From positions 1-63,140 of the forward strand of contig JAYRII010000006.1 in assembly GCA_041906885.1 (NCBI GenBank): DNA of 63,140 nucleotides, given 5' to 3'. Under the pieces are notes generated by a model. The model was not told where the DNA came from. It saw only the letters and a program-made list of their open reading frames with translations, and made no database searches. The stretch is from Candidatus Saccharimonadia bacterium (GTDB lineage: Bacteria > Patescibacteriota > Saccharimonadia > CAILAD01 > CAZGYV01). Every line of letters starts with the position of its first letter. Positions within the stretch are counted from its first letter, which is position 1. Of this stretch, positions 1,208-60,643 are shown in pieces. Made by a program: the position numbers and the translations under genes.

Positions 1208-1981
1208 ATGGGCAGTAGCTGCAACAAGAGGGTCTTCAAGGAATGCGTCGCCAGACGCATTCACGAAATCCTCGAGGAGCAGGGAGAGGATCAGCTTGAG
1301 CCGAAGTACCTGGCTCATCTGCAAGATGAGCTGTGGAAGGAGTATCAGGGCGAGGTAGACGAGGCTCTAACAGACGGCTACAAGCGAGATCGGATCGATG
1401 GCGTCGTCAAACGGCACCGGGCCGATCTCATCGAGCTACTCGGTCGCGAGAAGGCAACCTTTTATGAGGTTGTCGAGGTTTGCATCAAAAAGCTTATCGA
1501 GGGTATGAAGGTCGAGTCCGACTCGGTGCTCATATCTCGTCTAGCTGACGAGATGTGGGAGATGGTCGGTTATCGGATCGAACGAGGCATGAAGCCGCGA
1601 ACGATCCGTCACAAGGCTTACCGGTCATGCGAGAAGCTACTCAACGCTGATCTCGTCTATCAGCACCGGGACGCGCTCACCGAGGAGCGTAAGGCTGGTG
1701 GTGACAACGTCATCGAACTGCCAGAGCCGGAGGTCATTGATGACGCAGTAGTAGACATGATCGAGGGGGCTATGGCTGACTTCCCCGAGGTCGACTGCGA
1801 TGTCATTATCATTCGGTCCGTGGCGCCCTGCCGATGTGGCGCCGGCGTCTTGGCGGACTTCGAGCGAGCCGAGGGTGGTGAAGAGGTTGCGTTAGCTCGC
1901 AAGAGTCGGCCGCAGTCGCTCAGCTACACTCGGCTCAGCGAGGGGGATTATCTCGGCATCAACGCCCAGATCGTCTCCTAG
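1208..1981 (+). CDS. hypothetical protein, acidic, about 57% GC
   Basis: 257-aa ORF preceded by GGAGG and followed by terminator hairpins. No family motif recognised. Confidence 0.55.
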   Translation: MGSSCNKRVFKECVARRIHEILEEQGEDQLEPKYLAHLQDELWKEYQGEVDEALTDGYKRDRIDGVVKRHRADLIELLGREKATFYEVVEVCIKKLIEGMKVESDSVLISRLADEMWEMVGYRIERGMKPRTIRHKAYRSCEKLLNADLVYQHRDALTEERKAGGDNVIELPEPEVIDDAVVDMIEGAMADFPEVDCDVIIIRSVAPCRCGAGVLADFERAEGGEEVALARKSRPQSLSYTRLSEGDYLGINAQIVS

Positions 1982-2050
1982 CTAGAGCAAGTGCGGTAAT
2001 TCCCCGGGGGAGCGGTGTCTTTTTAGGCACTGCTCCCCGATGGAGGTTTT

Positions 2051-6140: not shown

Positions 6141-6178
6141 AAAAAACACCGGCTACTAAGTTTTAGGCTGGTGTTTTT
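6141..6178. terminator. bidirectional terminator between rpoD and the 6177-6506 ORF
   Basis: AAAAAACACCGGC-n13-GCTGGTGTTTTT is an imperfect stem flanked by an A-run and a T-run. Confidence 0.5.
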
Positions 6179-6506
6179 AATGGCCAGATTGATTATCGGG
6201 CGTTTCTTCTTCGTTTTGATTTGCACGATTTGCTTTGTCAGCTTTTATTTTTTCAATATACTCTAGTGCCCTTTGTCGGTTGACTGGCTCATAGCCGACG
6301 GCGGCGGAAGTTTCATTCTCACGAGCTGCACTAATGCCACGACGGGCGTCAGCTCCTCCTAGTCGCCTGCCTGGATGTCCCTCATCTGCAGGCTGAGGCG
6401 CTTTATCTTGGGTAAGTGGCTCTACTTCATTCGCCTTTAAATTAAAAGTATTTTGGTGGGGTGAGTCACCCTCGGGCGGGTTTGGGTCTGGTGCTTCTGG
6501 GCTCAT
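6177..6506 (-). CDS. hypothetical low-complexity/disordered protein
   Basis: 109-aa ORF downstream of the M23 peptidase gene on the same strand. Rich in Pro, Glu and Asn. Confidence 0.45.
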   Translation of the reverse strand: MSPEAPDPNPPEGDSPHQNTFNLKANEVEPLTQDKAPQPADEGHPGRRLGGADARRGISAARENETSAAVGYEPVNRQRALEYIEKIKADKANRANQNEEETPDNQSGH

Positions 6507-7660: not shown

Positions 7661-10582
7661 ATGGGATATAATAGTAGGATGAAATCACTAAGTCGCAGGC
7701 GATTTGTAATCTTTGATGGACATGCCTTGTTGCATCGCGGTTATCATGCGATCCCATATCTGTCGGCCAGAGATGGTACACCGACCAATGGTGTTTATGG
7801 ATTCACCATGATGATGCTCAATGCTCTGCGTGAACTTAAGCCAGAGTATGCTGTCGTCGCCTGGGATATGTCCGGGCCGACATTTCGTCACGAAATGTAC
7901 CGGGAGTATAAGGGTACTCGCAAACAGATTGACGATAATCTCGCAGCCCAAATACCCGTTACCCAAGACCTGGTGGAAACTTTTGCCATTCCTCTTATTG
8001 GCGTCAAAGGCTATGAGGCAGATGATGTGATTGGTACGTTGGCGCATCGCTACAAAAATGAGTTTGAGATTGTGATTGTGACAGGCGACATGGATGAGCT
8101 GCAGCTGGTTGATGATCATGTCAAAATATATACTTTGCGCAAAGGTTTTTCGGACACTGTTATTTACGATCGGGCGGCAGTTCAAGCAAAATACGGCCTC
8201 TCGCCGGAAGAATTTATTACTTTTAAGGCACTCAAAGGGGATGCTAGTGATAATATTCCAGGTGTCAGTGGTATTGGCGATAAGACAGCAACTGACCTGG
8301 TATCGAAGTACAAAACGCTCGAAACCATTTATGATCAGCTGGAAGAAATTAAGCCGTCTGTAAAAGTGAAGCTCGAAGCTGGTCAAGAGCAAGCCAAGAT
8401 GAGCCTCGAATTATCTCGAATCGTAGTCGATGTGCCGATGAAATTCGACATTAAGGATGCTGTCTTGCACGAATATGATCGTGCTAAAGTGGTCGATTTG
8501 TTTCAAAAGCTCGGCTTTAAAAGTTTGCTCAATAAATTGCCGATTCAAAATAAGAGTACAAGTATTATCCAAAAATCTCTTTTTGATGATGGTGTGGCCA
8601 AAAATCCTTCAGTTTCACAACATGCTCATCTGGAGTCGGTTAATTATGTTTGTGTTGATAGTGAGCAAAAACTCGATCAACTTGCTCGCAGTCTGGCCAT
8701 GCAAAAGGTATTTGCGTTCGACACTGAGACGGATGGTATTGATGTGATCAATGCAAATCTTGTGGGAATGAGTTTTTCGTGGAGGGAAGGAGAGGCTTAT
8801 TATTTGCCGCTTGATCACAAAGATACCACCGGCTCTCGATCACAGGCTATTTCATCGTCAGATCCTCTAGTTCACACTCAACGTAGTAGCACTACGGCTC
8901 GTTTGCAAGCTTTAGACCTTCCTCGAACTAGCTCTGAGCTTGAGAGCCTCACTTCTGATGTAGAATCTCTTGCTTCAGGACAATTGCCACTTCAAACAGT
9001 CCTCGACAAACTAAAACCGATTCTAGAAAATCCAAAAATTGGCAAAGTTGGGCATAATATTAAGTTTGATTATCAAATTCTTCGTCGCTATAACATCAAG
9101 CTAGGTCCAATCGCATTTGATACCATGGTGGCGGCCTTTTTGATTAACCCTATCGTTAGAGCGCAAACTTTATCAAGCCTGGCTTTTTCTGAGCTTGGTA
9201 TTGAGATGATTGATATTGAGGAGTTAATCGGCCCAAAAGGTAAGAATCAGCGAACTTTTGATTCTGTGTCAATTGATCTGGCAACCAAATATGCAGCTGA
9301 GGACGCTGACATGGCTTGGCGTTTATATCAGTCGCTCGGAGCACAACTTAAACAAATTCCAGGAGTAAATGAAGTTGCAAAGCTAATGGAATGGCCACTC
9401 ATCCCGGTCCTAGCTGAAGTTGAAATCACCGGCGTCAAGCTTGATACTGACTTTTTGAAGACTTTTTCGCGTAAGATTAATTTGATGACAGCAAAGCTGG
9501 AAGAATCGATTTGGCAAGAGGCTGGTGAGCACTTCAATATCAACTCGACTGCGCAACTCAAAGTCATTCTGTTTGATAAATTAAAAATAGATGGCACAGC
9601 TCTAAAGAAAAATAAGACTGGTCTCTCGACTGCTGCTAAGGAGCTTGAAAAATTGCGTGGCACTCACCCAATAATTGATCATTTGTTTGAATATCGTGAA
9701 GTCACCAAGCTCAAGAGTACTTATGTCGACACTCTGCCACTACTTGTCAATCAGTCAACCGGCCGTATTCATACCAGCTACAATCAGACGATTGCTCAAA
9801 CCGGACGACTGTCGAGCACTAATCCAAACTTACAGAATATTCCAATACGCACAGCGCTCGGACGGGAGATTCGGCGGGCTTTTGTAGCTGATAAAGGAAA
9901 AGTTTTCATTAGTGCCGATTATTCGCAAATAGAATTACGACTTGCAGCTGCATTAGCTGGTGACAAGCCGATGATCGAAGCATTTATAGACGGCGCTGAT
10001 ATCCATGCCCTAACAGCTTCAGAAATGTATGGCGTTGATATAGGTGATGTCACAAAAGAGCAACGTTATGCTGCTAAAACGATCAATTTTGGCATTCTTT
10101 ATGGTATGAATCCTCATGGTCTTTCGGTTGCAACTGGTATGACGTTCGAGGAGGCCAAAGCATTTATTGATCGATATTTTGAGATTAGGCGAGGTATCGC
10201 TGAGTATATCGAGAAAATTAAGAAGTTAGCTCATAAGCTGGGCTATACTGAGACGATATTTGGTCGCAGGCGGCCGTGTCCGGAAGTTCACTCAAGTAAT
10301 TTTGTGGTCCGATCGGCGGCTGAACGGGCAGCTGTCAATATGCCCCTGCAGGGTACGGCAGCCGATATGATGAAGCTGGCGATGATCAATCTGTCGGGCA
10401 AATTACCACCAAATGCCAAGATGATATTGCAAATTCATGATGAACTGATTGTTGAGTGTTGCAAAAAAGACTCTAGCCAGGTTTCAAAAATATTAAAGAG
10501 CGTAATGGAAGGGGTTCACAAATTTGATGTACCGATTGAGGTTGGCGTGTCGATTGGAACTAATTGGGGAGATTTAGGCTAA
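7661..10582 (+). CDS. polA: DNA polymerase I (5'-3' exo, 3'-5' exo and polymerase domains)
   Basis: ExoI 'FAFDTETDG', ExoII 'GHNIKFDYQIL', ExoIII 'YAAEDADMAWRLY', and polymerase motifs 'DYSQIELR' and 'QIHDELIVE'. An alternative start is the ATG at 7679, 6 nt after a TATAAT at 7667-7672, which could mean a leaderless mRNA. Confidence 0.95.
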   Translation: MGYNSRMKSLSRRRFVIFDGHALLHRGYHAIPYLSARDGTPTNGVYGFTMMMLNALRELKPEYAVVAWDMSGPTFRHEMYREYKGTRKQIDDNLAAQIPVTQDLVETFAIPLIGVKGYEADDVIGTLAHRYKNEFEIVIVTGDMDELQLVDDHVKIYTLRKGFSDTVIYDRAAVQAKYGLSPEEFITFKALKGDASDNIPGVSGIGDKTATDLVSKYKTLETIYDQLEEIKPSVKVKLEAGQEQAKMSLELSRIVVDVPMKFDIKDAVLHEYDRAKVVDLFQKLGFKSLLNKLPIQNKSTSIIQKSLFDDGVAKNPSVSQHAHLESVNYVCVDSEQKLDQLARSLAMQKVFAFDTETDGIDVINANLVGMSFSWREGEAYYLPLDHKDTTGSRSQAISSSDPLVHTQRSSTTARLQALDLPRTSSELESLTSDVESLASGQLPLQTVLDKLKPILENPKIGKVGHNIKFDYQILRRYNIKLGPIAFDTMVAAFLINPIVRAQTLSSLAFSELGIEMIDIEELIGPKGKNQRTFDSVSIDLATKYAAEDADMAWRLYQSLGAQLKQIPGVNEVAKLMEWPLIPVLAEVEITGVKLDTDFLKTFSRKINLMTAKLEESIWQEAGEHFNINSTAQLKVILFDKLKIDGTALKKNKTGLSTAAKELEKLRGTHPIIDHLFEYREVTKLKSTYVDTLPLLVNQSTGRIHTSYNQTIAQTGRLSSTNPNLQNIPIRTALGREIRRAFVADKGKVFISADYSQIELRLAAALAGDKPMIEAFIDGADIHALTASEMYGVDIGDVTKEQRYAAKTINFGILYGMNPHGLSVATGMTFEEAKAFIDRYFEIRRGIAEYIEKIKKLAHKLGYTETIFGRRRPCPEVHSSNFVVRSAAERAAVNMPLQGTAADMMKLAMINLSGKLPPNAKMILQIHDELIVECCKKDSSQVSKILKSVMEGVHKFDVPIEVGVSIGTNWGDLG

Positions 10583-10765: not shown

Positions 10766-11659
10766 ATGCCAGAATTACCAGAAGTGGAGACAGTGCGGGC
10801 TGGACTCGCCAGATATTTGATTGGACAGAAAGTCGTAGGTCTTGTGGTAGATAATCCAAAGTCTTTTCAAGATGACAGTGGTTTGGCCGAGACCAAGCTT
10901 TTTGGCGCGACTATCACTAGTGTGGATCGTCGGGCTAAAGTCCTGATAATCCGCCTCTCGACCGGCTATACGCTCTTGATTCATCTAAAGATGACCGGGC
11001 AGTTGATTTACCGGCCGACTCATGGCCGCGGCTTTGGCGGTGGCCACCCGACTGACTCGTTGATCGGTAGCTTGCCCGACCGCAGCACTCGCGTTACGCT
11101 CAAGCTCGAAAATGGTAAATTATTTTTCAACGACCAACGCAAATTTGGTTGGATAAAATTATTGTTCGATAGTGACATTGCCAATCTGGAATTTTTCCAG
11201 AAAGTCGGCCCGGAGCCGCTCGAGGCGGGATTTACTTTTGAGCAGTTTCATCGCCGTCTGAGAAGACGATCCCGCACCACTATCAAAGCAGCTATTCTCG
11301 ATCAATCGATCGTGGCTGGTATTGGTAATATCTACGCCGATGAGAGCTTGCACGCCGCTCGAATTCATCCGGCCGCTCTAGTGGGCGAGGTCAGTGCAAT
11401 CAAGCTCAAGCGTCTCCATCAAGCCATCAAAGACAGTCTGCAGATCAGTCTCGACCACGGCGGCAGCTCCGATCGCAATTATGTCGATGCCGATGGCAAT
11501 AAAGGCAGTTATCTGAAGTTTGCTCGTGTTTTCCGCCGTGAAGGCCAGCCATGTCCAGACTGCGGCACTATTATCGAGAAAACTCGGGTGGCTGGCCGCG
11601 GCACGCACTTCTGCCCCAAGTGCCAGAAGCTCCCAAAGAAAACACCCCGTAATCGTTAG
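10766..11659 (+). CDS. mutM: formamidopyrimidine-DNA glycosylase
   Basis: N-terminal 'MPELPEVETV' and C-terminal zinc finger 'CPDCG...HFCPKCQ'. Confidence 0.9.
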   Translation: MPELPEVETVRAGLARYLIGQKVVGLVVDNPKSFQDDSGLAETKLFGATITSVDRRAKVLIIRLSTGYTLLIHLKMTGQLIYRPTHGRGFGGGHPTDSLIGSLPDRSTRVTLKLENGKLFFNDQRKFGWIKLLFDSDIANLEFFQKVGPEPLEAGFTFEQFHRRLRRRSRTTIKAAILDQSIVAGIGNIYADESLHAARIHPAALVGEVSAIKLKRLHQAIKDSLQISLDHGGSSDRNYVDADGNKGSYLKFARVFRREGQPCPDCGTIIEKTRVAGRGTHFCPKCQKLPKKTPRNR

Positions 11660-13679: not shown

Positions 13680-13747
13680 GTCATTCTGAACTAGTTTCAG
13701 AATCTACTCTTTACGTAAAAAAGACCCTGAAACTAGTTCAGGGTGAC
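13680..13747. repeat. full-length 68-bp double-hairpin palindromic element (GTCAT...GTGAC)
   Basis: GTCATTCTGAACTAGTTTCAGAATCTAC-n15-GACCCTGAAACTAGTTCAGGGTGAC. A half-site lies upstream at 13645-13656. Confidence 0.8.
13717..13747 (-). terminator. rpsT terminator formed by the right arm of the repeat element
   Basis: On the minus strand, CCCTGAACTAGTTTCAGGG is followed by TCTTTTTT. Confidence 0.65.
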
Positions 13748-16856: not shown

Positions 16857-17065
16857 TTTGGCTTTATATACATACCTTATATAGTTGACGGGCATTAAGC
16901 CTGGTAGCTTGAGACAGTAATATTAATTGTACAAAAGATGTACTCAGTAGTGCGGTGGTAGAGACAAGTGATTAAATTATTTGATCAATTATCTCTGGCA
17001 CTTCGCATAATTATTGAAAGAGTACTTTTAAAACTATTTTGTGCAGAAAGACAAGTAGGAAATCT

Positions 17066-19213
17066 ATGGAAATCATCCATCCGTTTGGTGGAAAAACAGA
17101 AATATTTGAAACACAGTTTGCGGGCCGTAAGCTTACTATCGAAACCGGCCGAGTCGCTTTTTTGACAGATGGTGCGGTCTTGGTGCGTTATGGTGATACG
17201 GTGGTGCTCGGCACAGCCGTGATCGCTCCTGAGCCCAAGGAAGGAACTGATTTTTTCCCGCTCTTGGTTGATTATGAAGAGCGAATGTACGCTTCTGGTA
17301 AAATTTCTGGTAGTCGATTTATAAAGCGTGAGGGTCGACCGAGCGAGCAAGCAATTCTGACTAGTCGCTTAATCGATCGTCCGATCAGACCGTTATTTCC
17401 TAAAGGGTATCGTAATGATGTCCAGGTGGTAGTAACCGTTTTGTCGGCTGATCTTGAGCACGAGCCTGACATTATTGGAATCATTGCTGCTTCGAGTGCG
17501 TTGATGCTTACAGGTGCGCCATTTGATGGACCGGTGGCGGCATCTCGGATTGGTCTGATTGATGATAAGCTGGTAGCTTATCCAGCAGTCAGTGAGCAAG
17601 AAAAAAGCCGGCTTAATCTGACAGTTGCCGGCACCAAAGACGCTATTATGATGGTTGAGGCAGGTGCTAATGAAGTTGATGAAAAGACTATGACCGAAGC
17701 GATCGCTAAAGCCAAAGAGAGCTGGCAGCCAGTCATTGAATTGCAGGAAAAGATGGTCAAGGCCCACTCAGTCAAGCCAAAAGAGTATGAACTATTCACA
17801 CCCAATGATGAAGTTTACAACAAAGTCACAAAGTTTTTAGCTGATAAATTGGGTGATCATGTCATCTCGCCAGATACGCAGAAGCGTCATGATTCGCTCG
17901 GTAAGCTAAAAGAAGAGGTCATGGCCGAATTTGGGCCATTACCAGCCGAAGTTGATGAAGATCACGAGCGTTATAGTTACGCCGAAGTATCAGCTGCCTT
18001 TACTAAGGTAGTTGATGGTGAGATTCGACGGGCGATTATCGAAGATGGTAAGCGTCCGGATGGTCGTAAAACAACCGAGATTCGTCCAATTTCCGGACAA
18101 GTTGGGGTTTTACCGCGGACTCATGGTTCGGGTATTTTTACTCGTGGCACCACTCAGGCTTTGTCGATTACCACACTGGGACCAACTAGTGACGCACAGC
18201 TAATTGATACGATGGAAGAAGATACATCTAAGCGCTACATGCATCATTATAATTTTCCACCATATTCGACCGGTGAGGCGCGACCGATGCGGTCGACAGG
18301 CCGTCGTGAGATTGGCCACGGCGCTCTAGCCGAACGGGCTCTATTACCAGTTATTCCAGATGTTGAGGAATTTCCTTATGCCATCCGTGTGGTTTCAGAG
18401 ATCCTAACCTCAAATGGCAGTACCTCGATGGCAAGTGTTTGTGGCTCGACTTTGTCGCTGATGGACGCTGGTGTGCCACTGCGCAAACCAGTAGCTGGCA
18501 TAGCCATGGGGCTTATCATTAATCACGACAAGCCAGATGAGTATACGATCCTTTCTGATATTCAAGGAGCTGAGGATTTTGCCGGCGATATGGACTTTAA
18601 GGTTGCTGGTACCGATGACGGAATCACAGCTCTCCAGATGGACATCAAGGTTAAAGGCATCACGGTTGAGATTATGAAAACTGCTTTAGCGCAGGCTAAA
18701 GAAGGTCGAGCTCATATTATGAGTAAAGTCTTGGAGGTAATCGACAAGCCTCGAGCCGAAGTCAGTCAGTACGCACCACGCATTCACAAGATGATGATTG
18801 ATCCAGAGAAGATTCGTGAAGTTATTGGTAAGGGTGGCGAAACGATTCAGAAGATTATTGCCGAGACTGGTGTTGAGATTGATATCGATGATTCGGGCTT
18901 AGTCATGATTGCTTCGACTGATGAGGCTAAGGCTAAGGCAGCTTCTGAGTGGATTGAATCAATTGTGGCTGAGCCAGAGGTTGGGCAGATTTATGATGGT
19001 CGGGTGGTACGGGTGATGGATTTTGGCGCTTTTGTCGAGATTTTACCTGGCAAGGAAGGCCTGGTGCATATTAGCCAAATTGCTGATTATCACGTCGATG
19101 ATATTAATAAAGAGTTGAAAGTTGGTGATGAGTTTCCAGTGAAGCTCGTGGAGATTGATGCACAAGGCCGCCTCAATCTTTCTAAAAAAGCCGCGGAGCG
19201 CAATGCAAATTAA
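17066..19213 (+). CDS. pnp: polyribonucleotide nucleotidyltransferase (PNPase)
   Basis: Two RNase PH domains, a KH domain ('IREVIGKGGETIQKI') and an S1 domain ('GRVVRVMDFGAFVEI'). Start set to the ATG at 17066, preceded by AGGA. Confidence 0.95.
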   Translation: MEIIHPFGGKTEIFETQFAGRKLTIETGRVAFLTDGAVLVRYGDTVVLGTAVIAPEPKEGTDFFPLLVDYEERMYASGKISGSRFIKREGRPSEQAILTSRLIDRPIRPLFPKGYRNDVQVVVTVLSADLEHEPDIIGIIAASSALMLTGAPFDGPVAASRIGLIDDKLVAYPAVSEQEKSRLNLTVAGTKDAIMMVEAGANEVDEKTMTEAIAKAKESWQPVIELQEKMVKAHSVKPKEYELFTPNDEVYNKVTKFLADKLGDHVISPDTQKRHDSLGKLKEEVMAEFGPLPAEVDEDHERYSYAEVSAAFTKVVDGEIRRAIIEDGKRPDGRKTTEIRPISGQVGVLPRTHGSGIFTRGTTQALSITTLGPTSDAQLIDTMEEDTSKRYMHHYNFPPYSTGEARPMRSTGRREIGHGALAERALLPVIPDVEEFPYAIRVVSEILTSNGSTSMASVCGSTLSLMDAGVPLRKPVAGIAMGLIINHDKPDEYTILSDIQGAEDFAGDMDFKVAGTDDGITALQMDIKVKGITVEIMKTALAQAKEGRAHIMSKVLEVIDKPRAEVSQYAPRIHKMMIDPEKIREVIGKGGETIQKIIAETGVEIDIDDSGLVMIASTDEAKAKAASEWIESIVAEPEVGQIYDGRVVRVMDFGAFVEILPGKEGLVHISQIADYHVDDINKELKVGDEFPVKLVEIDAQGRLNLSKKAAERNAN

Positions 19214-19454
19214 ATCTTCGGAGCATTTCGTCGTTAAAAACACCGGTGCTCGCTTTGTGTACCGACCAGTACACCTCGAGGCGCGGTTAAGTCGGCTCAT
19301 GACTTTGGCGCACTTCTTCGTCGAAATATCCGCTCAGCCGTCGTCGTATTACCATATACGACTCCGACAGATGCTCAATTTTTCCTCGAATTGCATCCAG
19401 ATTCAAGCGCCTCAACCCCGGAACAATTTTAAAAATTAAACTATTTTCAATGAA

Positions 19455-24189: not shown

Positions 24190-26313
24190 ATGGCAAAGCG
24201 CAAGAAACCAGCCAAAAATCACAAAAAAGATCTCAAAGATAAAGATAAAGAGATCAAACCGCTCCTAGAACGCAGCGCGGTGCGTGAGATTATTGCGATC
24301 TTGCTCGTCTTGCTGGCGGTTTTTCTGATATTAGCGATTATTAATGTGGCAGGTATAGCTGGTGTTTGGACGCTAGCTGGATTTAAATTTTTGGTCGGTA
24401 CGGCGACTTATTTGTTGCCCTTAGCTCTACTATTGGTGGCCTGGATGCTATTTCGTCAAGATCATTATGAGTTTAAAATCAACAATCTATTAGGGTTGGT
24501 GGCGCTTTTTATCTGTCTGGCTGGTATCTTCCACTTCATTTTAGCACCAGCTAATTTCGAAGTCATGGCGGTGGGCAACTTTGGTGGTGTGATTGGTTTG
24601 GGGTTGGCAACTATCATGGGGCCGATCCTGACTCGACCGGTGGCGATTTTTATTCTGGCGATGCTGCTACTCATTAGTCTGATTGTTGCTGGCAATGCCA
24701 GGCTAAAAGATTTATTTGCAAAGTTTATGTCATTATTTAAGCGTCACAGAGAAGAAGCTGAGCTTGAAATAAATGAGCCCGCTCTTGAGATCAATAATAA
24801 GCTACCAATCAAGGGTACGATCGGTGGCAATAAGGAAGTAAAGTCAGCTAAAGCCGAACCAATCATGGAAGCAATCGATAAAGACTGGGAATATCCGCCG
24901 CTTGATTTGCTCGAAGCCACCTCGACTAGTGCTGACCCGGGTAATCCCAAGCAAAATGCTGCCACCATTCAAAAAACATTGGAAGATTTTGCAATCGACG
25001 TCCAGATGAGCGGCGTCGAGGTCGGACCGACTGTCTCGCAGTACACTCTCAAACCACCGTCTGGCGTGAACTTAAATAAAATCACCGCCCTAGATCGCAA
25101 TCTGGCACTGGCTCTAGAAGCTCATCAGATTCGCATCGAAGCACCAATTCCTGGAAAAAGCTTGGTTGGTATAGAGGTGCCAAATAAAAAAGCTGCTACT
25201 GTTCGGCTCAAAGATATTATTGCTTCTAAAGAAGTTATTAAAAATAAGTCTAAATTGACTTATGTGCTAGGTCGCGACGTAGTAGGCGATGTCGTTACTT
25301 CCGATCTGGCTGAAATGCCACATATACTAGTCGCTGGTGCTACAGGATCGGGTAAAAGCGTACTAATTAATACCATGCTAGTAAGTTGGCTGTATCGTAA
25401 TTCACCATCTGATCTTAAGTTAATCTTAATAGATCCAAAGCGTGTCGAAATGCCCCTGTATCATGATATACCTCACTTATTAACTCCCGTAATTCTAGAT
25501 ACTGGCCCTGCTGTTTCAGCTTTGCGCTGGGCAGTAGCAGAGATGGAGCGACGACTCGTACTATTACAAAATCATGGTAAACGAAATATTATCGAATACA
25601 ACAGCCAAAAGGATATTGATGGAATGCCTTATATCGTGATTGTAATTGATGAAATGAGCCAATTGATGGTGGCTTCAGGTAAGGAGGTCGAAGGCTTAGT
25701 AGTACAAATTGCACAGATGGCTCGCGCTGTTGGAATTCACTTAGTGTTAGCTACTCAAAGACCGAGTGTAAATGTCATTACAGGACTCATTAAAGCCAAT
25801 GTACCGGCTCGAGTGGCTTTGACGACCACCAGCCAGACCGACTCACGTACAATTATTGACTCGGGTGGCGCAGAGAAACTATTAAAACGTGGAGATATGC
25901 TCTACCTTGATCCAGAGATGAGCAAGCCTAAGCGTATTCAGGGTGTTTTCTTGAGTACCGAAGAAGTTAAAGCCGTAACTAATTACTTGCGCGAAAAACG
26001 TCAGCCACAATACAACGATGAAGTCTTGGCTCAAGAGACGAAAGCTGCCGGTCGAGGTGGCGCTGGTAGTTTTGATGGTGGCGGTGGAGATGATGAGCTA
26101 TTTAGTGAAGCGGTCAATATTGTGATCCAACGCGGTAAAGCATCATCATCGGATTTGATGCGACGATTGCGCGTTGGTTATGCTCGTTCGGCTAGACTAA
26201 TGGACATGCTCGAAGATCGTGGTGTGATCGGCGCCCAAGATGGCAGTCGTCCGCGCGAGGTCTTGGTATCGAGCGTGACAGAACTTGAGGGAGAAGCTAA
26301 TGAGTCCGAGTGA
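24190..26313 (+). CDS. ftsK: DNA translocase FtsK/SpoIIIE
   Basis: N-terminal TM segments, 'VAGATGSGKS' Walker A, 'VIVIDEMSQLM', and a winged-helix gamma domain 'ASSSDLMRRLRVGYARSARLMDMLEDRGVIG'. Confidence 0.9.
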   Translation: MAKRKKPAKNHKKDLKDKDKEIKPLLERSAVREIIAILLVLLAVFLILAIINVAGIAGVWTLAGFKFLVGTATYLLPLALLLVAWMLFRQDHYEFKINNLLGLVALFICLAGIFHFILAPANFEVMAVGNFGGVIGLGLATIMGPILTRPVAIFILAMLLLISLIVAGNARLKDLFAKFMSLFKRHREEAELEINEPALEINNKLPIKGTIGGNKEVKSAKAEPIMEAIDKDWEYPPLDLLEATSTSADPGNPKQNAATIQKTLEDFAIDVQMSGVEVGPTVSQYTLKPPSGVNLNKITALDRNLALALEAHQIRIEAPIPGKSLVGIEVPNKKAATVRLKDIIASKEVIKNKSKLTYVLGRDVVGDVVTSDLAEMPHILVAGATGSGKSVLINTMLVSWLYRNSPSDLKLILIDPKRVEMPLYHDIPHLLTPVILDTGPAVSALRWAVAEMERRLVLLQNHGKRNIIEYNSQKDIDGMPYIVIVIDEMSQLMVASGKEVEGLVVQIAQMARAVGIHLVLATQRPSVNVITGLIKANVPARVALTTTSQTDSRTIIDSGGAEKLLKRGDMLYLDPEMSKPKRIQGVFLSTEEVKAVTNYLREKRQPQYNDEVLAQETKAAGRGGAGSFDGGGGDDELFSEAVNIVIQRGKASSSDLMRRLRVGYARSARLMDMLEDRGVIGAQDGSRPREVLVSSVTELEGEANESE

Positions 26314-27343
26314 ACGCGAGAAAAAGCCAGAATTTGCCAAGCGTTCACTTTCCAAAAAACCAACCTCAGATCTAACTCTAGCCGAGGTTTTTAAAAAGCG
26401 TCGACATGATTTGAAGATGAGTCTAGGCGATGTCGAGCGCGGCATTAAAGTGCAACATGCTTATTTGCAAATGATCGAGAATGGCGACTACGAAAACTTG
26501 CCTAATGATATTTATTCTAAAGGCTTTGTCAAAAATTATGCTGAGTTTCTTGGCTTTGAAGCAACCCCGATTTTAGAACTTTACGATAAAGAGCGAAAAG
26601 GCAGCGGTGCTAAGCTGAAAGAGCCATCTGGCGGTTCAAAAAATATCAAGATGGGCTTACGTCCGATCGATTCCAAGCGAGTCGTCGTCACCCCAAAAAC
26701 GCTATTAATTTCCCTCGGTATTTGCTTAGTTCTGCTGGTGGTAGGCTATCTTGGTTGGCAATTTTCAGCCTTGTCGGCTCCGCCAAAACTGACGCTTGAG
26801 AATCCGGCTGAGCAGATTGTCGACACCAATTCGATCTATATCGCTGGCCGAGTCGATGGTGGCTCAGATTTATATATCAATGATTCACCGATTTTAAGCA
26901 GCCCGGATGGTAGTTTTAAAGAGAAGGTTTCGCTGGTCAATGGTGCCAATCAAATTAAAATTACCGCCAAGAATAAATTAGGTAAGACAGCTACTATTAA
27001 TAAAACTGTGGTGGCGCGTCTGCCGCAAATTGCTTCGGCCAGTCCGACGCCTACTCCGGGCACCCCGCTTGATGGCGTTGAGCTGACGGTCAAAGTAAAC
27101 GGACAAGCGGCCTGGATAATCGTTGAGACTGATGGACACGAAGCTTTTCGACAGACCATGCTTCCCGGTACGCAGCAGGTCTTTAAAGCCAAGAACCAAG
27201 TTAAGCTGACGACCGGCAACGCTGGCGCGACGGCGCTGATTTTATCTAATGGTGTGGTGGCCAGTAAGGATATTGGTAGCCTTGGTCGGCCAGGCGAGGT
27301 GAAGGCAGGGCTGGTATTTAACAAAGATACACAGGTGCAGTAG
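26300..27343 (+). CDS. RodZ-like HTH membrane protein (XRE HTH, TM segment, DUF4115-like C-terminus)
   Basis: 'IKVQHAYLQMIENGDYENLPNDIYSKGFVKNYAEFLG' and one TM segment. Start at the ATG at 26300, preceded by GAGGGAGAAG and overlapping the end of ftsK. Confidence 0.7.
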   Translation: MSPSEREKKPEFAKRSLSKKPTSDLTLAEVFKKRRHDLKMSLGDVERGIKVQHAYLQMIENGDYENLPNDIYSKGFVKNYAEFLGFEATPILELYDKERKGSGAKLKEPSGGSKNIKMGLRPIDSKRVVVTPKTLLISLGICLVLLVVGYLGWQFSALSAPPKLTLENPAEQIVDTNSIYIAGRVDGGSDLYINDSPILSSPDGSFKEKVSLVNGANQIKITAKNKLGKTATINKTVVARLPQIASASPTPTPGTPLDGVELTVKVNGQAAWIIVETDGHEAFRQTMLPGTQQVFKAKNQVKLTTGNAGATALILSNGVVASKDIGSLGRPGEVKAGLVFNKDTQVQ

Positions 27344-27554
27344 TCAGCAGTCATATTCACGCACTCTACTTCGTTACAACCTGCGATACTCATTCGACGT
27401 ACTAAAAAAGTACGCCTCATTCCGTTTCTCAGTTGTGCCTCGTATAGCACTCAAATATGGCTGCCTCTGCAATGTTCTTCCATATCCCGCTTTTGCTTGC
27501 AATTCGGTGAGTTTGCATCAATAATTAGCCCTACCTTGGAAGATAGGAGACATC

Positions 27555-31945: not shown

Positions 31946-32122
31946 ATCTCGGTTTTTCCTCTTCGCGCTTTTTGCACTTTCTAAGCAGCATCTGCTTGTT
32001 CAACGTAGGTATACTACGCCTCGCTTCACAGAGTATACTTATCAAGCATAAGCCCATCGAAGCATTAAAAACCTCTTCCGTGAGTCAACTAGAAAAATAT
32101 TTAACTTAAGAGAAAGTAAACA

Positions 32123-32341: not shown

Positions 32342-32559
32342 TTGGGCGCACGCATGCCACGCCAAGTGGCGTTATGAGCTACGATGCACATGTCATTACA
32401 CCTTTTATGTAAACTGCATTCGAGCTCATCGTTCATACTTTACTTGGTATAGACATTCATTGCACCTCATTTTTATAGTTTTTATCCTGAACTTTCCTCA
32501 GGCTAAAAAAGTTTAGTCTTGATAGAAAACTTACTACCTTTTTAAAAAGAAAGGAAAAT

Positions 32560-36252: not shown

Positions 36253-37443
36253 TTACTTAACATTAAACCTAAAAACAATCACATCACCGTCACGCACGAT
36301 GTAGTCGCGGCCTTCGAGGCGAACTTTGCCGGCCTCTTTGGCGCCAACCCAGCCGTTACTGCTTACAAAATCGTCATACGATACTACTTCAGCTTTAATA
36401 AAGCCCTTCTCAAAATCTCCATGAATGACGCCGGCCGCTTCGGGTGCGGTAGCGCCGATTGGCACGGTCCAGGCGCGAGATTCCTTTTCGCCGCTGGTGA
36501 AATAAGTCTGCAAGCCGAGCGTTTGATAGCCTAGGCGGATCAGGCTCTGCAGGCCCGATTCTTCTTGCCCGAGCTCGGCCAAAAGCTCGCGTCTGTCCGC
36601 CTCGCTCAAATCCATCAGTTGCTCTTCTGTCTTGGCAGATAAAAATATGGTTGGCAATCCTGGTACGAGTTCGGCTAATTGCTTCTTGTAAGCTTCGTCT
36701 GAGAGCTTAGCTTCGGCGATATTGAAAACATAGATAAATGGTTTGGCAGTGAGGAGCTGGAGAACTTTTATACTGTCTGAAATTTCTGGTATGTCATGCC
36801 GAACTTGTTTCGGTATCTCGATTTTTAAGTTTGTAGATCCTGAAACGAGTTCAGGATGACCATTTTTGTTGGGATGACCGTTATTTCTATTGGGCTGGCT
36901 GTAATGTTGGCTGACCAGTTCGCCTCGGTCTAAAAATTCTTTTATTTTTGCTAGCTCGGCAACTGTGGCGCTAGCTTTAGGGTTCGCCTTGCGTTCTTTT
37001 TCAAGCTTGTTTAAGCGATTTTCAACCGTAGCTAGATCTGCTAAACAGAGCTCAGTACGAATCGTCTCGATATCGCGCGCTGGGTCGATCGCATCATCGA
37101 CATGGACGACGTTATCATCCTCAAAGGCCCGTACGACTTGCACGATTGCAGCGCACTCACGGATGTGAGCGAGAAATTTATTGCCCAAGCCAGCTCCCTC
37201 AGACGCACCACGCACAATGCCGGCGATGTCAGTAAAGCTAACCGCTGCTGGGATAACTTTGGCACTTTTTGAAATATCAGCTAGTCTGGCGAGTCGCGCG
37301 TCTGGTACTTCAACCACGCCGACATTTGGCTCGATCGTGGCAAAAGGGTAGTTAGCGGCTAAAACTTTATTGCGGGTGAGGGCATTAAAAAGCGTCGACT
37401 TGCCGACATTAGGCAAGCCAACGATGCCGATAGATAAACTCAT
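36253..37443 (-). CDS. ychF: ribosome-binding ATPase YchF carrying an in-frame repeat-element insertion
   Basis: 'GIVGLPNVGKSTLFNAL' G1 motif and a C-terminal TGS-like 'RAWTVPIGATAPEAAGVIHGDFEKGFIKAEV'. It is 396 aa, against roughly 363 for typical YchF. Confidence 0.93.
   Translation of the reverse strand: MSLSIGIVGLPNVGKSTLFNALTRNKVLAANYPFATIEPNVGVVEVPDARLARLADISKSAKVIPAAVSFTDIAGIVRGASEGAGLGNKFLAHIRECAAIVQVVRAFEDDNVVHVDDAIDPARDIETIRTELCLADLATVENRLNKLEKERKANPKASATVAELAKIKEFLDRGELVSQHYSQPNRNNGHPNKNGHPELVSGSTNLKIEIPKQVRHDIPEISDSIKVLQLLTAKPFIYVFNIAEAKLSDEAYKKQLAELVPGLPTIFLSAKTEEQLMDLSEADRRELLAELGQEESGLQSLIRLGYQTLGLQTYFTSGEKESRAWTVPIGATAPEAAGVIHGDFEKGFIKAEVVSYDDFVSSNGWVGAKEAGKVRLEGRDYIVRDGDVIVFRFNVK
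36793..36860. repeat. full-length 68-bp double-hairpin element inside the ychF coding sequence
   Basis: Plus strand reads GTCATGCCGAACTTGTTTCGGTATC-n18-GATCCTGAAACGAGTTCAGGATGAC. An extra half-site lies at 36872-36880. Confidence 0.8.
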
Positions 37444-51518: not shown

Positions 51519-51654
51519 CTTTTATATACGCTTCTATACTCTCGTATAAATAACAAAACTCAAGGAGGAGGTAAGAAATATCATGCAATTAACTAAGAAA
51601 AAAGGTTTCACCCTGATTGAAATCGTTATCGTGCTGGCGATTGCGGCACTGATA
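51519..51654. repeat. left arm of a perfect 136-bp inverted repeat (pilin 5' UTR plus the first 24 codons)
   Basis: Reverse complement of 52445-52580 with no mismatch by eye. Confidence 0.85.
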
Positions 51655-51984
51655 CTTATCATTGTGTTCTTGGCGGTGTCAGGTGCGCAAAGGGAGAGAA
51701 GAAACGACGGACGTAAAAATATCGCTGGGCAAGTGGTTGCAGCTGTTCAAACATTTCAGGGAAATAATGGTGGCGCTTTACCAACAAATGCCTCACCATC
51801 TACCCAGTTGCAAAGTATTGTTATAAATAGAGATGTACCGGGAGTGGGTACTATGACAATTAACGTGTCCGCCCTACCGTCTTGTACGAATACAGGAAGT
51901 GCCATAGTAACATTTAATGGATCTACTACTGTTCGCGCATGTCTAGAAGGTAACGGAACCACTGGATACGACCTTACATTGTAG
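51583..51984 (+). CDS. type IV pilin (prepilin with a G|FTLIE cleavage/methylation site)
   Basis: 'MQLTKKKGFTLIEIVIVLAIAALIL'. Confidence 0.85.
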   Translation: MQLTKKKGFTLIEIVIVLAIAALILIIVFLAVSGAQRERRNDGRKNIAGQVVAAVQTFQGNNGGALPTNASPSTQLQSIVINRDVPGVGTMTINVSALPSCTNTGSAIVTFNGSTTVRACLEGNGTTGYDLTL

Positions 51985-52051: not shown

Positions 52052-52516
52052 CTACGAAGCGTTATCGATACAAACTACCGTATTACCACTTTCCACCCAG
52101 TAGGTAATAGCTAGAGTGTTTCTACTTGGTGTGTGAGTTACTCCATTAAAGGTTTGTGCTGTGTTAGCTATGCCTCCAGCAGCAGTACATACGTAGGCGT
52201 CTCTATACCTAAATCTTTGGCCGGCGGTAGATGTGGCAGCTGCGTTATTGTAGTTCGGATCTTCACCTTGTCCATTTTGAATGCCTTGGGTGTAGTTACC
52301 TGGTAGATTAGCACCTAAAGGCAAGGTGCCTCCATTATTCGCGAAGTTTTCAAACTGCGCAGAAAGACGAGCTGCGGCATTTTTAGTCACATCGTCACGT
52401 CTAGAACGCTGTGCACCCCCGACAGCTAGGAATACTATCACTAATATCAGTGCCGCAATCGCCAGCACGATAACGATTTCAATCAGGGTGAAACCTTTTT
52501 TCTTAGTTAATTGCAT
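52052..52516 (-). CDS. type IV pilin, second variant, convergent with 51583
   Basis: The first 24 residues are encoded by DNA identical to the 51583 gene. The C-terminal domain is divergent. Confidence 0.85.
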   Translation of the reverse strand: MQLTKKKGFTLIEIVIVLAIAALILVIVFLAVGGAQRSRRDDVTKNAAARLSAQFENFANNGGTLPLGANLPGNYTQGIQNGQGEDPNYNNAAATSTAGQRFRYRDAYVCTAAGGIANTAQTFNGVTHTPSRNTLAITYWVESGNTVVCIDNAS

Positions 52517-52580
52517 GATATTTCTTACCTCCTCCTTGAGTTTTGTTATTTATACGAGAGTATAGAAGCGTATATAAAAG
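52445..52580. repeat. right arm of the perfect 136-bp inverted repeat
   Basis: See the left arm. A strong hairpin, GCGCCGC-n8-GCGGCGC (52584-52605), lies just outside it. Confidence 0.85.
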
Positions 52581-52669: not shown

Positions 52670-53290
52670 ATGATCAAAGCTACAAAACAAACCCGTCATT
52701 CTGGGTCACAAACCTGTCGTCCTGAACAGCGCTCGCTGACTCATCCCCGTCATTCTGGCTTGCGTGGCCGTCATTCTGAATTTATTTCAGAATCTACATT
52801 GAGTGCTAACAAGATCCTGAAACGAGTTCAGGATGACATTAGAAGTCAGGGTGATAACAAAGGCCGGGGTGGCGTTCAAATCCAAGGTAGCACTACCCAA
52901 AGGGGCTTCACGATCGTCGAGACGCTCTTTGTGCTCGCAATCGGCGGACTGATCTTGATAATGACATTCCTAGCGCTCGGCCAGACCAATCGCTCTAAGC
53001 GCGACGCCCAGCGCAAGACGGACTTTGCTAAGATCAATCAGAATATCGCCTCCTGGACAAATGAGCACCATGGTATATTGCCGACTGGTACTGCTGCAGT
53101 ACAGACTGCATCGGCACCAATACCCGATTCGCCAGATGGGAGTGGAAATCCATATGATGTGACCGCTACTTCCATCACTACTGCTTGCGGCGCTGGGTCA
53201 ACGAACAATATCTACTACGAGCGGACAAACGATAGATCATACAAAATAAAAATCTGTTTAGAATCAGGAGAATTCATTGAAAACCACTAA
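52670..53290 (+). CDS. pilin-like protein (G|FTIVE site); true start uncertain
   Basis: 'QRGFTIVETLFVLAIGGLILIMTF'. The only in-frame ATG lies about 75 codons upstream, and the ORF there reads through repeat elements. In-frame TTG codons also exist. Confidence 0.6.
   Translation: MIKATKQTRHSGSQTCRPEQRSLTHPRHSGLRGRHSEFISESTLSANKILKRVQDDIRSQGDNKGRGGVQIQGSTTQRGFTIVETLFVLAIGGLILIMTFLALGQTNRSKRDAQRKTDFAKINQNIASWTNEHHGILPTGTAAVQTASAPIPDSPDGSGNPYDVTATSITTACGAGSTNNIYYERTNDRSYKIKICLESGEFIENH
52693..52837. repeat. cluster of three half-sites plus one full 68-bp element (52770-52837)
   Basis: GTCATTCTGAATTTATTTCAGAATCTAC-ATTGAGTGCTAACAA-GATCCTGAAACGAGTTCAGGATGAC. Confidence 0.8.
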
Positions 53291-53927: not shown

Positions 53928-53975
53928 AGCTCGCTGGTACTAGTCCTTCAGCTTGGCATTTTGAACAGCAATCCC

Positions 53976-54160
53976 GTCATCCTGAACTTGATTCAGAATC
54001 TACGTTGAGTGCCAACAGATCCTTCGACTTCGCTCAGGATGACAATTGTCCTGACCCGCTGACCACTTCTGTCATTCTGATCCGGCGGTTGCCGGAGAAG
54101 AATCTACTCCCGCTACGAAGCAGATCCTGAATAGTGAGCCAGCGAGCACTGCTTAAGGAC
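53976..54160. repeat. one full 68-bp element (53976-54043) plus a second variant element
   Basis: GTCATCCTGAACTTGATTCAGAATCTAC-GTTGAGTGCCAACA-GATCCTTCGACTTCGCTCAGGATGAC, followed by GTCATTCTGATCCGGCGGTTGCCGGAGAAGAATCTAC... Confidence 0.75.
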
Positions 54161-54196: not shown

Positions 54197-54239
54197 TGAA
54201 TTACTGCAACGGTTATAATGGATGAAAGGGAAGAAGCTT

Positions 54240-54899
54240 ATGGCTCTAACAAAAGAAGACATTTCACAGATCAAAAACCTGATCGACACCATGGATATAT
54301 CACGTATACGCATGGCTATGCGCACAGATATCGAGGAGGTGATGGAGGAGAAGGTTGGTAAATTTGAGATCAAGATTGATCAAAAATTCGCTGATGCTGA
54401 AGTCAAGATCGACCAAAAGTTAGCCGATTTCGAGACGAAGATGTACGAAAAGTTCGCTATCGCTGAGGCTAGTGTAGATGAAAAGTTCGCTATCGCTGAG
54501 GCTAGTGTAGATGAAAAGTTCGCTATCGCTGAGGCTAGTGTAGATGAAAAGTTTGATAATTTCGCTGCCATGGTGCAGAGGCAGTTTGTGCACATCGATA
54601 CTAGGTTTGATAAGCTTGAAGCTAGGTTTGATAAGCTTGAGGCCAGAATGGACAGGCTTGAGGATAGGATGGATAAAATTGAGATCAAGGTTGGTCATCT
54701 AGAAGGGAGAATAGCAAGCATGGAATCAAAGATTTTGGCCATAGAAGCTGAGCTTGAGGAGATTAAAGAAGAGCTCAAGCAGATTAGTACTAGGTCTAAA
54801 GAAGACGCCGATTATCAAGGCTATGAAATCATCAAGCTGGGCCGCCGGGTGACGCAGCTAGAAGATGAGGTGGGTGAGCTTAAGAAAGCTATTAAGTAA
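54240..54899 (+). CDS. coiled-coil repeat protein of unknown function
   Basis: Heptad-like 'D.KF...' repeats, 3x 'EKFAIAEASVD', and 'TRFDKLEARFDKLEARMDRLEDRMDKIE'. Start taken at M7 of the tracked ORF. Confidence 0.6.
   Translation: MALTKEDISQIKNLIDTMDISRIRMAMRTDIEEVMEEKVGKFEIKIDQKFADAEVKIDQKLADFETKMYEKFAIAEASVDEKFAIAEASVDEKFAIAEASVDEKFDNFAAMVQRQFVHIDTRFDKLEARFDKLEARMDRLEDRMDKIEIKVGHLEGRIASMESKILAIEAELEEIKEELKQISTRSKEDADYQGYEIIKLGRRVTQLEDEVGELKKAIK
54447..54545 (+). repeat. perfect 33-bp x3 in-frame tandem repeat, plus a partial fourth unit
   Basis: GAAAAGTTCGCTATCGCTGAGGCTAGTGTAGAT repeated three times. Confidence 0.9.
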
Positions 54900-54923
54900 T
54901 CATAGGTCTCCCCGGCACATAGA

Positions 54924-55231
54924 GATTCTTCTCCGGCAGCTGGCGGAGAAGAATGACAGAGGTGGGCAGCAGTTCAGATTGACAGCGCGGAGCTGGCCTG
55001 CTTGTTACCTTGGGTGTAAAAGCTGTCATCTTGAGCGTAGTCGAAAGATCTCTCGCCACGGTCATCCTGAACAGCGAGCTTGTGAGCGCGTTTCAGGATC
55101 TCGCCGGCACGGTTGTCATCCTAAAGCGTAGTCGAAAGATCTGCTGGCACAAGATATAGATCCTGAATCAAGTTCAGGATGACAGGAGCAGAGTTAGATG
55201 CGGAATGACAGAGTAAGTGGTTCAGGACGAC
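54924..55231. repeat. dense cluster of at least 7 hairpin arms of the GTCATYCT.../...RGATGAC family
   Basis: Examples are GTCATCTTGAGCGTAGTCGAAAGATCTC (55025), GTCATCCTGAACAGCGAGCTTGTGAGCGCGTTTCAGGATCTC (55061), GTCATCCTAAAGCGTAGTCGAAAGATCTGC (55115) and GATCCTGAATCAAGTTCAGGATGAC (55159). Confidence 0.8.
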
Positions 55232-55359
55232 AACGCGGAGCCGCCTTTTACGAGAAAGCACTGCTAGGCCGAGCTAAAATCGCCAAATGGTTGCCTAAAA
55301 CACCGTTTGCCGGGATAATATTAAGCATAAGAGTATTATTTGGTAGTTATTAAAGCAAC

Positions 55360-60413: not shown

Positions 60414-60492
60414 ACCTTTTAGGATAAGCGTTTTATTTGCAGGGTGCAAGCTCCTCTTTACTTTTGAACAGTTCCTCCTTCATCCTTAGCTA

Positions 60493-60610
60493 GATTCTTC
60501 ACTCCGTTTGAGAATGACAACATACCAACCGTCATCCTCAAGCAACAGTCGAAGGATCTATTCCCCCCAAACACCCATCATGTCATCCTGAACTCGTTTC
60601 AGGATCTGTC
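60493..60610. repeat. three hairpin arms of the same repeat family
   Basis: GATTCTTCACTCCGTTTGAGAATGAC, GTCATCCTCAAGCAACAGTCGAAGGATCT and GTCATCCTGAACTCGTTTCAGGATCT. Confidence 0.75.
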
Positions 60611-60643
60611 TATAATTAGAAAATAATTTTTTTATCTTTCTCT

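Follow-up and report, generated by a model that had tools for sequence, protein, structure and literature searches.

An in-frame hairpin element, with apparent relatives in other phyla, in the DNA polymerase I gene of a Saccharibacterium

How does a core replication enzyme come to carry an extra segment in its proofreading domain, and what has become of that segment since? The question is raised by the polA gene of a contig assigned to Saccharibacteria (Patescibacteria), of which a stretch of 63,140 nt (the window) was analyzed here. Its product, DNA polymerase I (PolA), has the 5'-nuclease, 3'-5' exonuclease and polymerase domains expected from the Pfam domains of its homologs, and its catalytic residues are invariant (ExoI D354/E356, ExoII N466/D470, ExoIII Y544/D548). 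Between ExoI and ExoII lies a Ser/Thr/Leu-rich segment, KDTTGSRSQAISSSDPLVHTQRSSTTARLQALDLPRTSSELESLTSDVESLASGQ, flanked by AYYLPLDH and LPLQTVLDKLKPILENPKIGKVGHNIKFD. A preliminary description took this segment for an older, partly degraded in-frame copy of a repeat that is abundant elsewhere in the window, which we call family A. Our comparisons instead show it, as far as homology and covariance models can tell, to be an ancient in-frame copy of a separate palindromic hairpin element, family B, whose core spans ~105 nt.

That the segment is an insertion is clear from an alignment of 120 homologs, in which most Saccharibacteria PolA proteins (907-927 aa) lack it and have just GH-x-E-G-x-QL at the site. 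In the window protein 52 residues separate two aligned blocks that are 5 residues apart in the Klenow fragment of E. coli; the extra length reported earlier thus stands, and the figure of about 14 residues then given for E. coli is a looser count of the same loop. The insert segment is free of stop codons and a multiple of three in length in 15 of 15 PolA orthologs, and it is far too short for an intein; an intein or intron was considered and appears unlikely. Part of the insertion is peculiar to the window: the 21 nt that encode ESLTSDV are missing from the closest insert-bearing orthologs, and they bear a weak resemblance (10/21 nt) to the next seven codons (ESLASGQ). One PolA subclade (L013, at 11260-11340, L020, L029 and L207) carries a further ~54 nt (18 aa) 3' of the core (..LKLLSQSQQILIRDDSENYDDLELASGQL).

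Within the 3'-5' exonuclease domain, the element entered the loop that joins the final strand on the ExoI side to the helix after it, and the reading frame was kept open. In an AlphaFold2 model of the whole protein (mean predicted local distance difference test score, pLDDT, of 83), only residues 391-434 are of low confidence (pLDDT 26-36), between strand 378-383 (AYYLPL) and helix 444-455, and the remainder is confident; the exonuclease fold tolerates the loop in this model, a check that had been proposed at the outset. The very low confidence of the inserted residues leads us to predict that they form a disordered loop at the surface. PolA proteins of Kapaibacterium/Ignavibacteria (L050, L056, L062) have 30-40-aa inserts in the same ExoI-ExoII loop that are unrelated to the present one and do not belong to family B, and such unrelated inserts in another phylum suggest that changes in length have a general hotspot here.

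The DNA of the insert is strikingly alike among PolA orthologs that are just ~60% identical in protein. RNAalifold, applied to seven PolA copies, yields a single long hairpin of 30 pairs, 14 of which show compensatory double changes. Of the 30 consensus pairs, 27 are intact in the window copy, which is old, as had been proposed, and only mildly degraded. The palindromes noted in the preliminary description are present (CTAGTTC at 8867-8873 and GAACTAG at 8925-8931; CGTAGT-agc-ACTACG at 8882-8896), and the motifs CTCAACGTAGtagcaCTACGGCTC, ATCGTC and TCCTCGAAC match the apex and internal loops of family B. Read from the sequence, the outer arms of the insertion pair in the manner of terminal inverted repeats, GGCTCTC (8831-8837) with GAGAGCC (8942-8948) in the window, CCCGGT with ACCGGG in L001 and TCATACTCAG with CTGAGTATGA in L014. 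In the latter two loci the entire ~145-150-nt insertion is one hairpin; in the window the hairpin reaches only 8831-8948 (~118 nt) with its outer arms and does not take in the rest of the insertion on the 3' side. Single-sequence folding z-scores range from -0.7 in the window to -5.8 in L029. In one sequencing run (X25, of unknown type and low depth) a contig stops at 8910 and the next begins at 8915, within the 3' arm of the hairpin; DNA runs span this region unchanged.

Evidence that the pairing has been maintained comes from 15 orthologous PolA copies, aligned gaplessly and by MAFFT in an alignment that was not fitted to the structure. Standard pairs fill 90.2% of the pair cells, against 32-41% with partners slid along by 1-3 columns; double changes are seen in 14/30 pairs, against 3-5 for slid partners; and the covariation score is 0.348, against at most 0.08, with 0 of 500 shuffles reaching the observed values. 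Variability by codon position is flat in the hairpin core (0.23/0.19/0.20) and rises steeply at third positions in the adjacent polA sequence (0.16/0.11/0.43), and within the core pairing makes no difference to conservation (0.203 at paired and 0.215 at unpaired positions). A flat codon profile combined with retained pairing points to constraint on nucleic-acid sequence and pairing, with the peptide as a passenger, and shows that since the insertion selection or repair bias has acted on the nucleic acid and not on the peptide. With compensatory changes maintaining its pairing across the 15 orthologs, the PolA copy appears to be no mere decaying relic.

Where, then, did the hairpin come from? 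A covariance model built from the seven PolA copies only (R1) finds further copies in the window and in other Saccharibacteria loci (Table 1), and all of those outside PolA are intergenic and on the + strand. They are found on the coding strand, between genes or directly behind one, and start ~10-15 nt past stop codons; the copy at 27355..27454, for instance, begins 12 nt past the stop codon of a RodZ-like gene (26285..27343, Pfam). The copy at 19302 is syntenic with the two copies in L001, which lie after that genome's own pnp. A possible degenerate copy at 19219-19254, just upstream of the one at 19302, is weak (E=1.6) and would give a tandem arrangement like that at 22154/22286 in L001. The copy at 31959..32067 has the apex TCAACGTAG-N5-CTACGCCTC in common with the PolA copy, and a cross-phylum hidden Markov model (HMM) matches it at E=2e-7. 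An HMM built without the PolA copies matches window positions 8847-8931 at E=8e-11, and one built from other phyla only matches the PolA insert at E=5e-7; in a negative control of 775 kb of unrelated PolA loci there was a single match, at E=0.07. The PolA copy is the only intragenic one seen among ~9 distinct loci; unusually for a family of intergenic or intercistronic location, it is translated, and it is co-oriented with its gene.

Outside Saccharibacteria, the family was sought through its apex, for which the consensus is (T)CAACGTAG-N5-CTACG.CTC. The pattern TCAACGTAG-N5-CTACG.CTC occurs in at least 120 stretches of species-representative genomes, where by our own estimate chance would give ~70 matches, and many genomes have several copies. 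Among the apex-pattern matches listed, the full hairpin matches the model at 23-58 bits in 52 places, the host groups of which include Pseudobdellovibrionaceae, Methylomirabilota/Rokubacteria, Geobacteraceae/Desulfuromonadales, Nitrospira, Clostridia and others, and family B is also found in Planctomycetota. Judged by these matches, family B would extend to seven phyla or more. Over the whole family, paired cells amount to 88.9% and covariation is seen in 28/30 pairs, in an alignment that, being fitted to the model, is biased towards structure. The architecture is common to copies across phyla, as are the internal-loop motifs (5' side, CGT(C/T); 3' side, CCT.GAA or GCA), and neither was built in by the retrieval. 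Two groups carry near-identical multi-copy elements with terminal inverted repeats: the Clostridiales RUG10700 (L082-L156), with ~175-bp elements and a TWA target duplication, and the Pseudobdellovibrionaceae CAZYOE (L112-L153), with a flanking 6-bp TANNTA direct repeat. In other groups each copy has outer stems of its own. Several RUG10700 copies have lost internal stretches beside the apex, with short microhomologies at the deletions. Scanning metagenomes with a strict pattern of the PolA type returned 1 locus only, and a co-orientation count made with stop-to-stop open reading frames (ORFs), 26 versus 13 of 54, is noisy and not decisive.

Table 1. Features of the polA locus and copies of family B. 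Positions are those of the window unless a locus is named; R1 and R2 are covariance models, and their E-values are rough.
Feature	Position	Strand	Details
polA (DNA polymerase I)	7661..10582	+	973 aa; ORF translation, Pfam domains of homologs
Whole in-frame PolA insertion relative to empty alleles	8819..8983	+	~52-55 codons; 120-homolog protein alignment, DNA of filled and empty sister alleles, Klenow alignment
Family-B hairpin core in polA	8839..8943	+	105 nt; RNAalifold consensus; R1 104.3 bits, R2 97.4 bits
Helix P1	8841-8853/8925-8938	+	family-B core
Helix P2	8860-8864/8915-8919	+	family-B core
Helix P3	8869-8877/8901-8911	+	family-B core
Apical helix P4	8882-8886/8892-8896	+	family-B core
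Window-specific extra 21 nt (7 aa, ESLTSDV)	8942..8962	+	3' of the core; alignments
Intergenic family-B copy	19302..19406	+	downstream of pnp (17039..19213, Pfam); R1 52.8 bits, E=4e-11; R2 80.4 bits
Intergenic family-B copy	27355..27454	+	R1 33.2 bits, E=1.4e-5; R2 73.4 bits
Intergenic family-B copy	31959..32067	+	ssb-rpsR spacer (Pfam); R1 24.4 bits, E=0.0042; R2 57.9 bits
Weak candidate, degenerate family-B copy	32353..32460	+	just after rpsR; R2 with filters off 16.3 bits, E=0.07, not significant alone
Family-B copy, L001	22154-22258	+	R1 52.6 bits, E=5e-11
Family-B copy, L001	22286-22390	+	R1 33.5 bits, E=1.1e-5
Family-B copy, L040	17097-17201	+	rpsO-pnp spacer; R1 36.6 bits, E=1.6e-6
Family-B copy, L015	17042-17145	+	rpsO-pnp spacer; R1 19.8 bits, E=0.08
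Family-B copy, L092 (Methylomirabilota)	6146-6234	-	upstream of RNase III gene
Family-B copy, L086 (Pelotalea)	1936-2041	-	between nifH and nifD

The history of the element within PolA can be followed on a neighbor-joining tree built with the insert masked, where the hairpin occurs in two distant clades: W (the window, P0003, P0004, P0007 and P0008) and D (P0029, P0031, P0032, P0036, P0041, P0044, P0050 and P0061). Clade D also contains decayed, unpaired versions (P0058-60, L021, L210) that retain a C-terminal ..SEYENLxLxxGQL. Identity between the clades is 64% in the core and 59-64% in flanking polA, and because the two are so similar the insert seems as old as the clade split and not recently transferred. 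Among close alleles it comes and goes: a clean indel of 126 nt sets apart the polA genes of L001 and L211, which are otherwise 91.7% identical, the empty allele of the pair has an ancestral-looking GH-DEG-GQL, which could not result from a simple excision out of the filled one, and identity falls to 0.82-0.85 in 150-nt windows beside the indel. The ancestral-looking empty allele and the dip in identity together suggest allele exchange by homologous recombination, and P0002 (L205) holds the remnant of an internal, imprecise deletion; presence and absence among close alleles would then reflect homologous recombination with occasional internal deletion. Taken as a whole, this identity and history, an in-frame insertion of family B under structure-level constraint, is in our judgment probable.

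Two other origins were weighed. Family A is a modular repeat, GTCATCCTGAAC...TTCAGGATCT, whose 26-nt modules (GTCATYCTGA-loop-TCRGRATCT) occur mostly as inverted pairs of ~68 nt. Its elements lie in the window at 13680, 20080, 36793, 52770, 53976, 55115 and 60582 and include a spacer subfamily, CTACGTTGAGTGCCAACAG; with ~17 modules in the window against 1 in L001 and none over ~700 kb from further Saccharibacteria loci, it is essentially confined to the window's lineage. In favor of a degraded family-A copy in polA are the exact 12-mer CACTCAACGTAG at 8875-8886 (+), which recurs in the family-A spacer at 54000-54011 (-) and in 11 of 12 positions at 52794-52805, the AGATCC at 8860, and the fact that family A does sit in frame in another gene, that of YchF. 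The 12-mer is there as described, but carries little weight as a sign of kinship: matches of at least 12 nt to family-A regions turn up in 9 of 384 control segments of 159 nt (2.3%), and its His codon, CAC, is found in the window copy only, with CGC (13) or CGT (one) in the remaining 14 PolA copies aligned. What had been taken for GATCC-type arm remnants is helix P2 (AGATC, 8860-8864, with 8915-8919), a covarying helix whose sequence is quite different in other orthologs. HMMs of the family-A module and full element, which recover all known family-A copies, find nothing in 8815-8990 at E<=1000 with --max, and no family-A arm with up to 3 mismatches occurs in 8800-9000; conversely, the family-B model with filters off gives family-A elements only 11-16 bits (E 0.1-3). 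The insert is kept in distant clade D relatives that have 0 family-A modules at their loci. Since the alignment to the repeat model is silent and the segment is conserved in relatives that lack the repeat, a family-A origin is not supported, and we consider it very improbable; of the original proposal there remains a repeat-derived in-frame insertion with intergenic copies in the window, though not one of the same family as the element at 54000. An ordinary, lineage-specific low-complexity expansion of the loop, its likeness to repeats a chance by-product of Ser/Thr/Leu/Arg-rich coding, would accord with the variable length of this loop in other phyla (the Ignavibacteria inserts above), but it is extremely improbable in view of the matches with independent intergenic copies at E=1e-10 to 1e-11, the 14 covarying pairs and the flat codon-position profile. 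Both origins are effectively excluded.

It is more difficult to say why the hairpin has been kept. One mechanism would be cis action on the polA mRNA, presumably common to the intergenic and intercistronic copies: the long imperfect duplex would set processing or stability, perhaps by offering a target to RNase III or another RNase specific for double strands. The family-B copies beside rpsO-pnp, pnp and rnc hint at a role in RNA processing or stability. The leaders of the E. coli rpsO-pnp, pnp and rnc operons are cleaved by RNase III, and positions upstream of the RNase III gene, in the rpsO-pnp spacer and between nifH and nifD are known for regulated mRNA processing in model bacteria. Such cis action is the likeliest of the mechanisms considered, a serious possibility that falls short of being probable. 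More tentative is the broader proposal, in which a cross-phylum element is functional inside an essential polymerase ORF: its 105 nt would encode a peptide loop that is tolerated and at the same time form a cis-acting hairpin under selection, perhaps an RNase III-type site for processing or stability that tunes polA expression, and alleles would exchange it by recombination. Several observations weigh against a maintained family-B hairpin, or at least against one that acts as RNA. Target-site duplication is not recognizable at the PolA insertion junctions, the window copy alone folds no better than shuffles (z=-0.69), the E-values of the covariance models come from a shortened calibration, and apex conservation among the cross-phylum loci is built in because they were retrieved with the apex pattern. 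HMMs of the 5' or 3' arm only are not significant for the PolA copy; the arms would seem to be conserved as structure and not as sequence. G.U mismatches are no commoner than A.C (20 against 23 in PolA copies, 39 against 57 in other copies, counting both orders), so there is no strand signal favoring RNA over DNA structure, and the two are indistinguishable from mismatch counts. Some lineages (L021, L210, P0058 type) kept part of the peptide and lost the pairing, and with others wholly lacking the insert the hairpin is dispensable. An insert without function, its pairing kept by quasi-palindrome template switching or intra-element conversion along with slow decay and its loop simply tolerated, fits much of this: equal G.U and A.C counts are what DNA-level complementarity without RNA preference would give, loss or decay in many lineages has had no apparent harm, and the closest precedent, the Rickettsia palindromic elements (RPEs), are mostly viewed as selfish DNA in the accounts consulted. 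Arm conversion, however, cannot slow divergence between lineages, yet third positions vary at 0.20 in the core and at 0.43 in the flanks; unpaired loop positions are as conserved as paired ones; and the loop sequences CGT(C/T) and CCT.GAA and the apex are common to copies in other phyla. We therefore hold this explanation, too, to be possible but doubtful. Constraint at the level of DNA, with a cruciform or single-stranded hairpin serving as a site for a transposase-like, recombinase, nucleoid or replication protein, would agree with mismatches that lack strand asymmetry and with the transposon-like terminal inverted repeats and target duplications of the RUG10700 and Pseudobdellovibrionaceae copies. 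Against it, no transposase or other recurrent gene was found next to the few copies examined or between paired copies (L151, L086), where there are only a histidine kinase and nifH/nifD; all Saccharibacteria copies are on the coding strand, close behind a gene or between two; the covariance model matches one strand only; and the apex scan of viral contigs gave 0 matches and BLAST of family-B copies (including one Rokubacteria copy as query) against a plasmid collection none. BLAST against phages gave three weak, unannotated matches. A DNA-level site is an improbable explanation.

Other features of the window bear on its repeats and its gene content. A complete 68-nt family-A element (GTCATGCCGAAC...GTTCAGGATGAC) occupies 36793-36860, inside the intact ORF of the YchF GTPase (36253..37443, -), which encodes 396 aa where ~365 are usual; this is presumably the first core enzyme with an in-frame repeat to which the preliminary description alluded. 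Family-A modules are clustered at 52680-52860, 53950-54140, 54900-55240 and 60460-60615, and inverted arrays at 53972-54105 and 54923-55187 flank an ORF (54222..54899) that holds six 33-nt tandem repeats (54348-54558). Two convergent pilin-like ORFs, 51583..51984 (+) and 52052..52516 (-), have N-terminal parts that match a 207-nt inverted repeat (51519-51725 / 52374-52580, 86%), and FTLIEIVIVLAIA is encoded by the same nucleotides in both. Over the whole of 1-63140 GC skew is positive, and most genes are on the + strand; a tRNA scan found no tRNA gene in the window.

Most known cases of palindromic repeats lying in frame within core genes come from Rickettsia, where they have been treated as selfish DNA. 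New here are the host, a member of the candidate phyla radiation (CPR), the proofreading domain as target, the demonstrable covariation inside an ORF and the cross-phylum core. As the insert can be traced through two deep clades and its signature of constraint lies on the nucleic acid, the function of an intragenic palindrome becomes testable. The link between an overlooked Geobacter element, discussed below, and a hairpin family missing from Rfam also makes family B a candidate new class of structured element: Rfam 15 has no family for the copies, either at the gathering threshold (the whole window and 12 loci) or at E<=10 (two copies). Such inserts inflate protein length, mimic low-complexity loops and can mislead the annotation and alignment of CPR marker genes.

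The closest match in sequence is with 24 "predicted short RNA elements" (Gmet_R1001-1024, together with GSU0160.1), described as being of unknown function, all intergenic, and reported from Geobacteraceae and Desulfotalea only (Aklujkar et al., 2009; PMC2700814, Additional file 4). Their printed sequences align with the Geobacteraceae copies of family B, and they have the same central palindrome, GRCGTAGCGCTGCTACGCC, the same flanks, CTTTTCCGCAATCTC..GCGT ... GCCTTGA.CTTGCGAAAAATCC, and the same multi-copy, intergenic or intercistronic occurrence, so that on sequence grounds family B matches these elements. A text search of the literature for the apex strings found nothing besides that paper, beyond which the present analysis adds the intragenic, translated and covarying PolA copy and a range that takes in Saccharibacteria, Clostridia, Rokubacteria, Nitrospira, Planctomycetota and Pseudobdellovibrionaceae. 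Two further resemblances were considered and dropped: to attC sites, since family B has no R'/R'' boxes and does not occur in arrays, and to ssoA/CS-6 and the pMV158 nick site, since the likeness is not conserved across the family. Family A itself is like family B in being palindromic and multi-copy with one in-frame copy in a core gene (YchF), but it is a separate sequence family without significant similarity, restricted to the window's lineage and built of 26-nt modules paired to ~68 nt.

Among the better known palindromes, REP (repetitive extragenic palindromic) sequences and the related bacterial interspersed mosaic elements and REPINs carry GTAG and CGTC tags, lie outside genes, after or between them, and have been proposed to act as mRNA stabilizers or processing sites (PMC3733652). 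Family B likewise forms hairpins after or between genes and has GTAG and CGTC motifs. REPs, however, are 20-40 bp long, with GTAG at one end of the palindrome, and are species-specific in sequence, whereas in family B GTAG/CTAC forms the apical stem of a 105-nt hairpin whose core is found across phyla. [quoted passage not shown] A typical MITE has conserved ends and a free middle, whereas family B keeps its middle from phylum to phylum and varies in its ends and target duplications; the Saccharibacteria copies are divergent, conserved in position and without recognizable duplication. The closest parallel for the PolA insert is with the RPEs (Ogata et al., 2000, 2002), described as palindromic repeats of ~100-150 bp with intergenic and intragenic copies, the latter lying in frame in unrelated housekeeping genes and being translated where the protein fold tolerates them (PMC10969869). 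As far as these descriptions go, the PolA insert agrees in being a palindromic repeat in frame in a housekeeping ORF with further copies in the genome, and differs in its host (Saccharibacteria and not Rickettsia), in its single intragenic copy, in the cross-phylum core of its family, and in a pairing kept by compensatory change over deep divergence with a flat codon profile. By analogy, then, the PolA insert would work like an RPE as these are described, without being filed as a member of that group.

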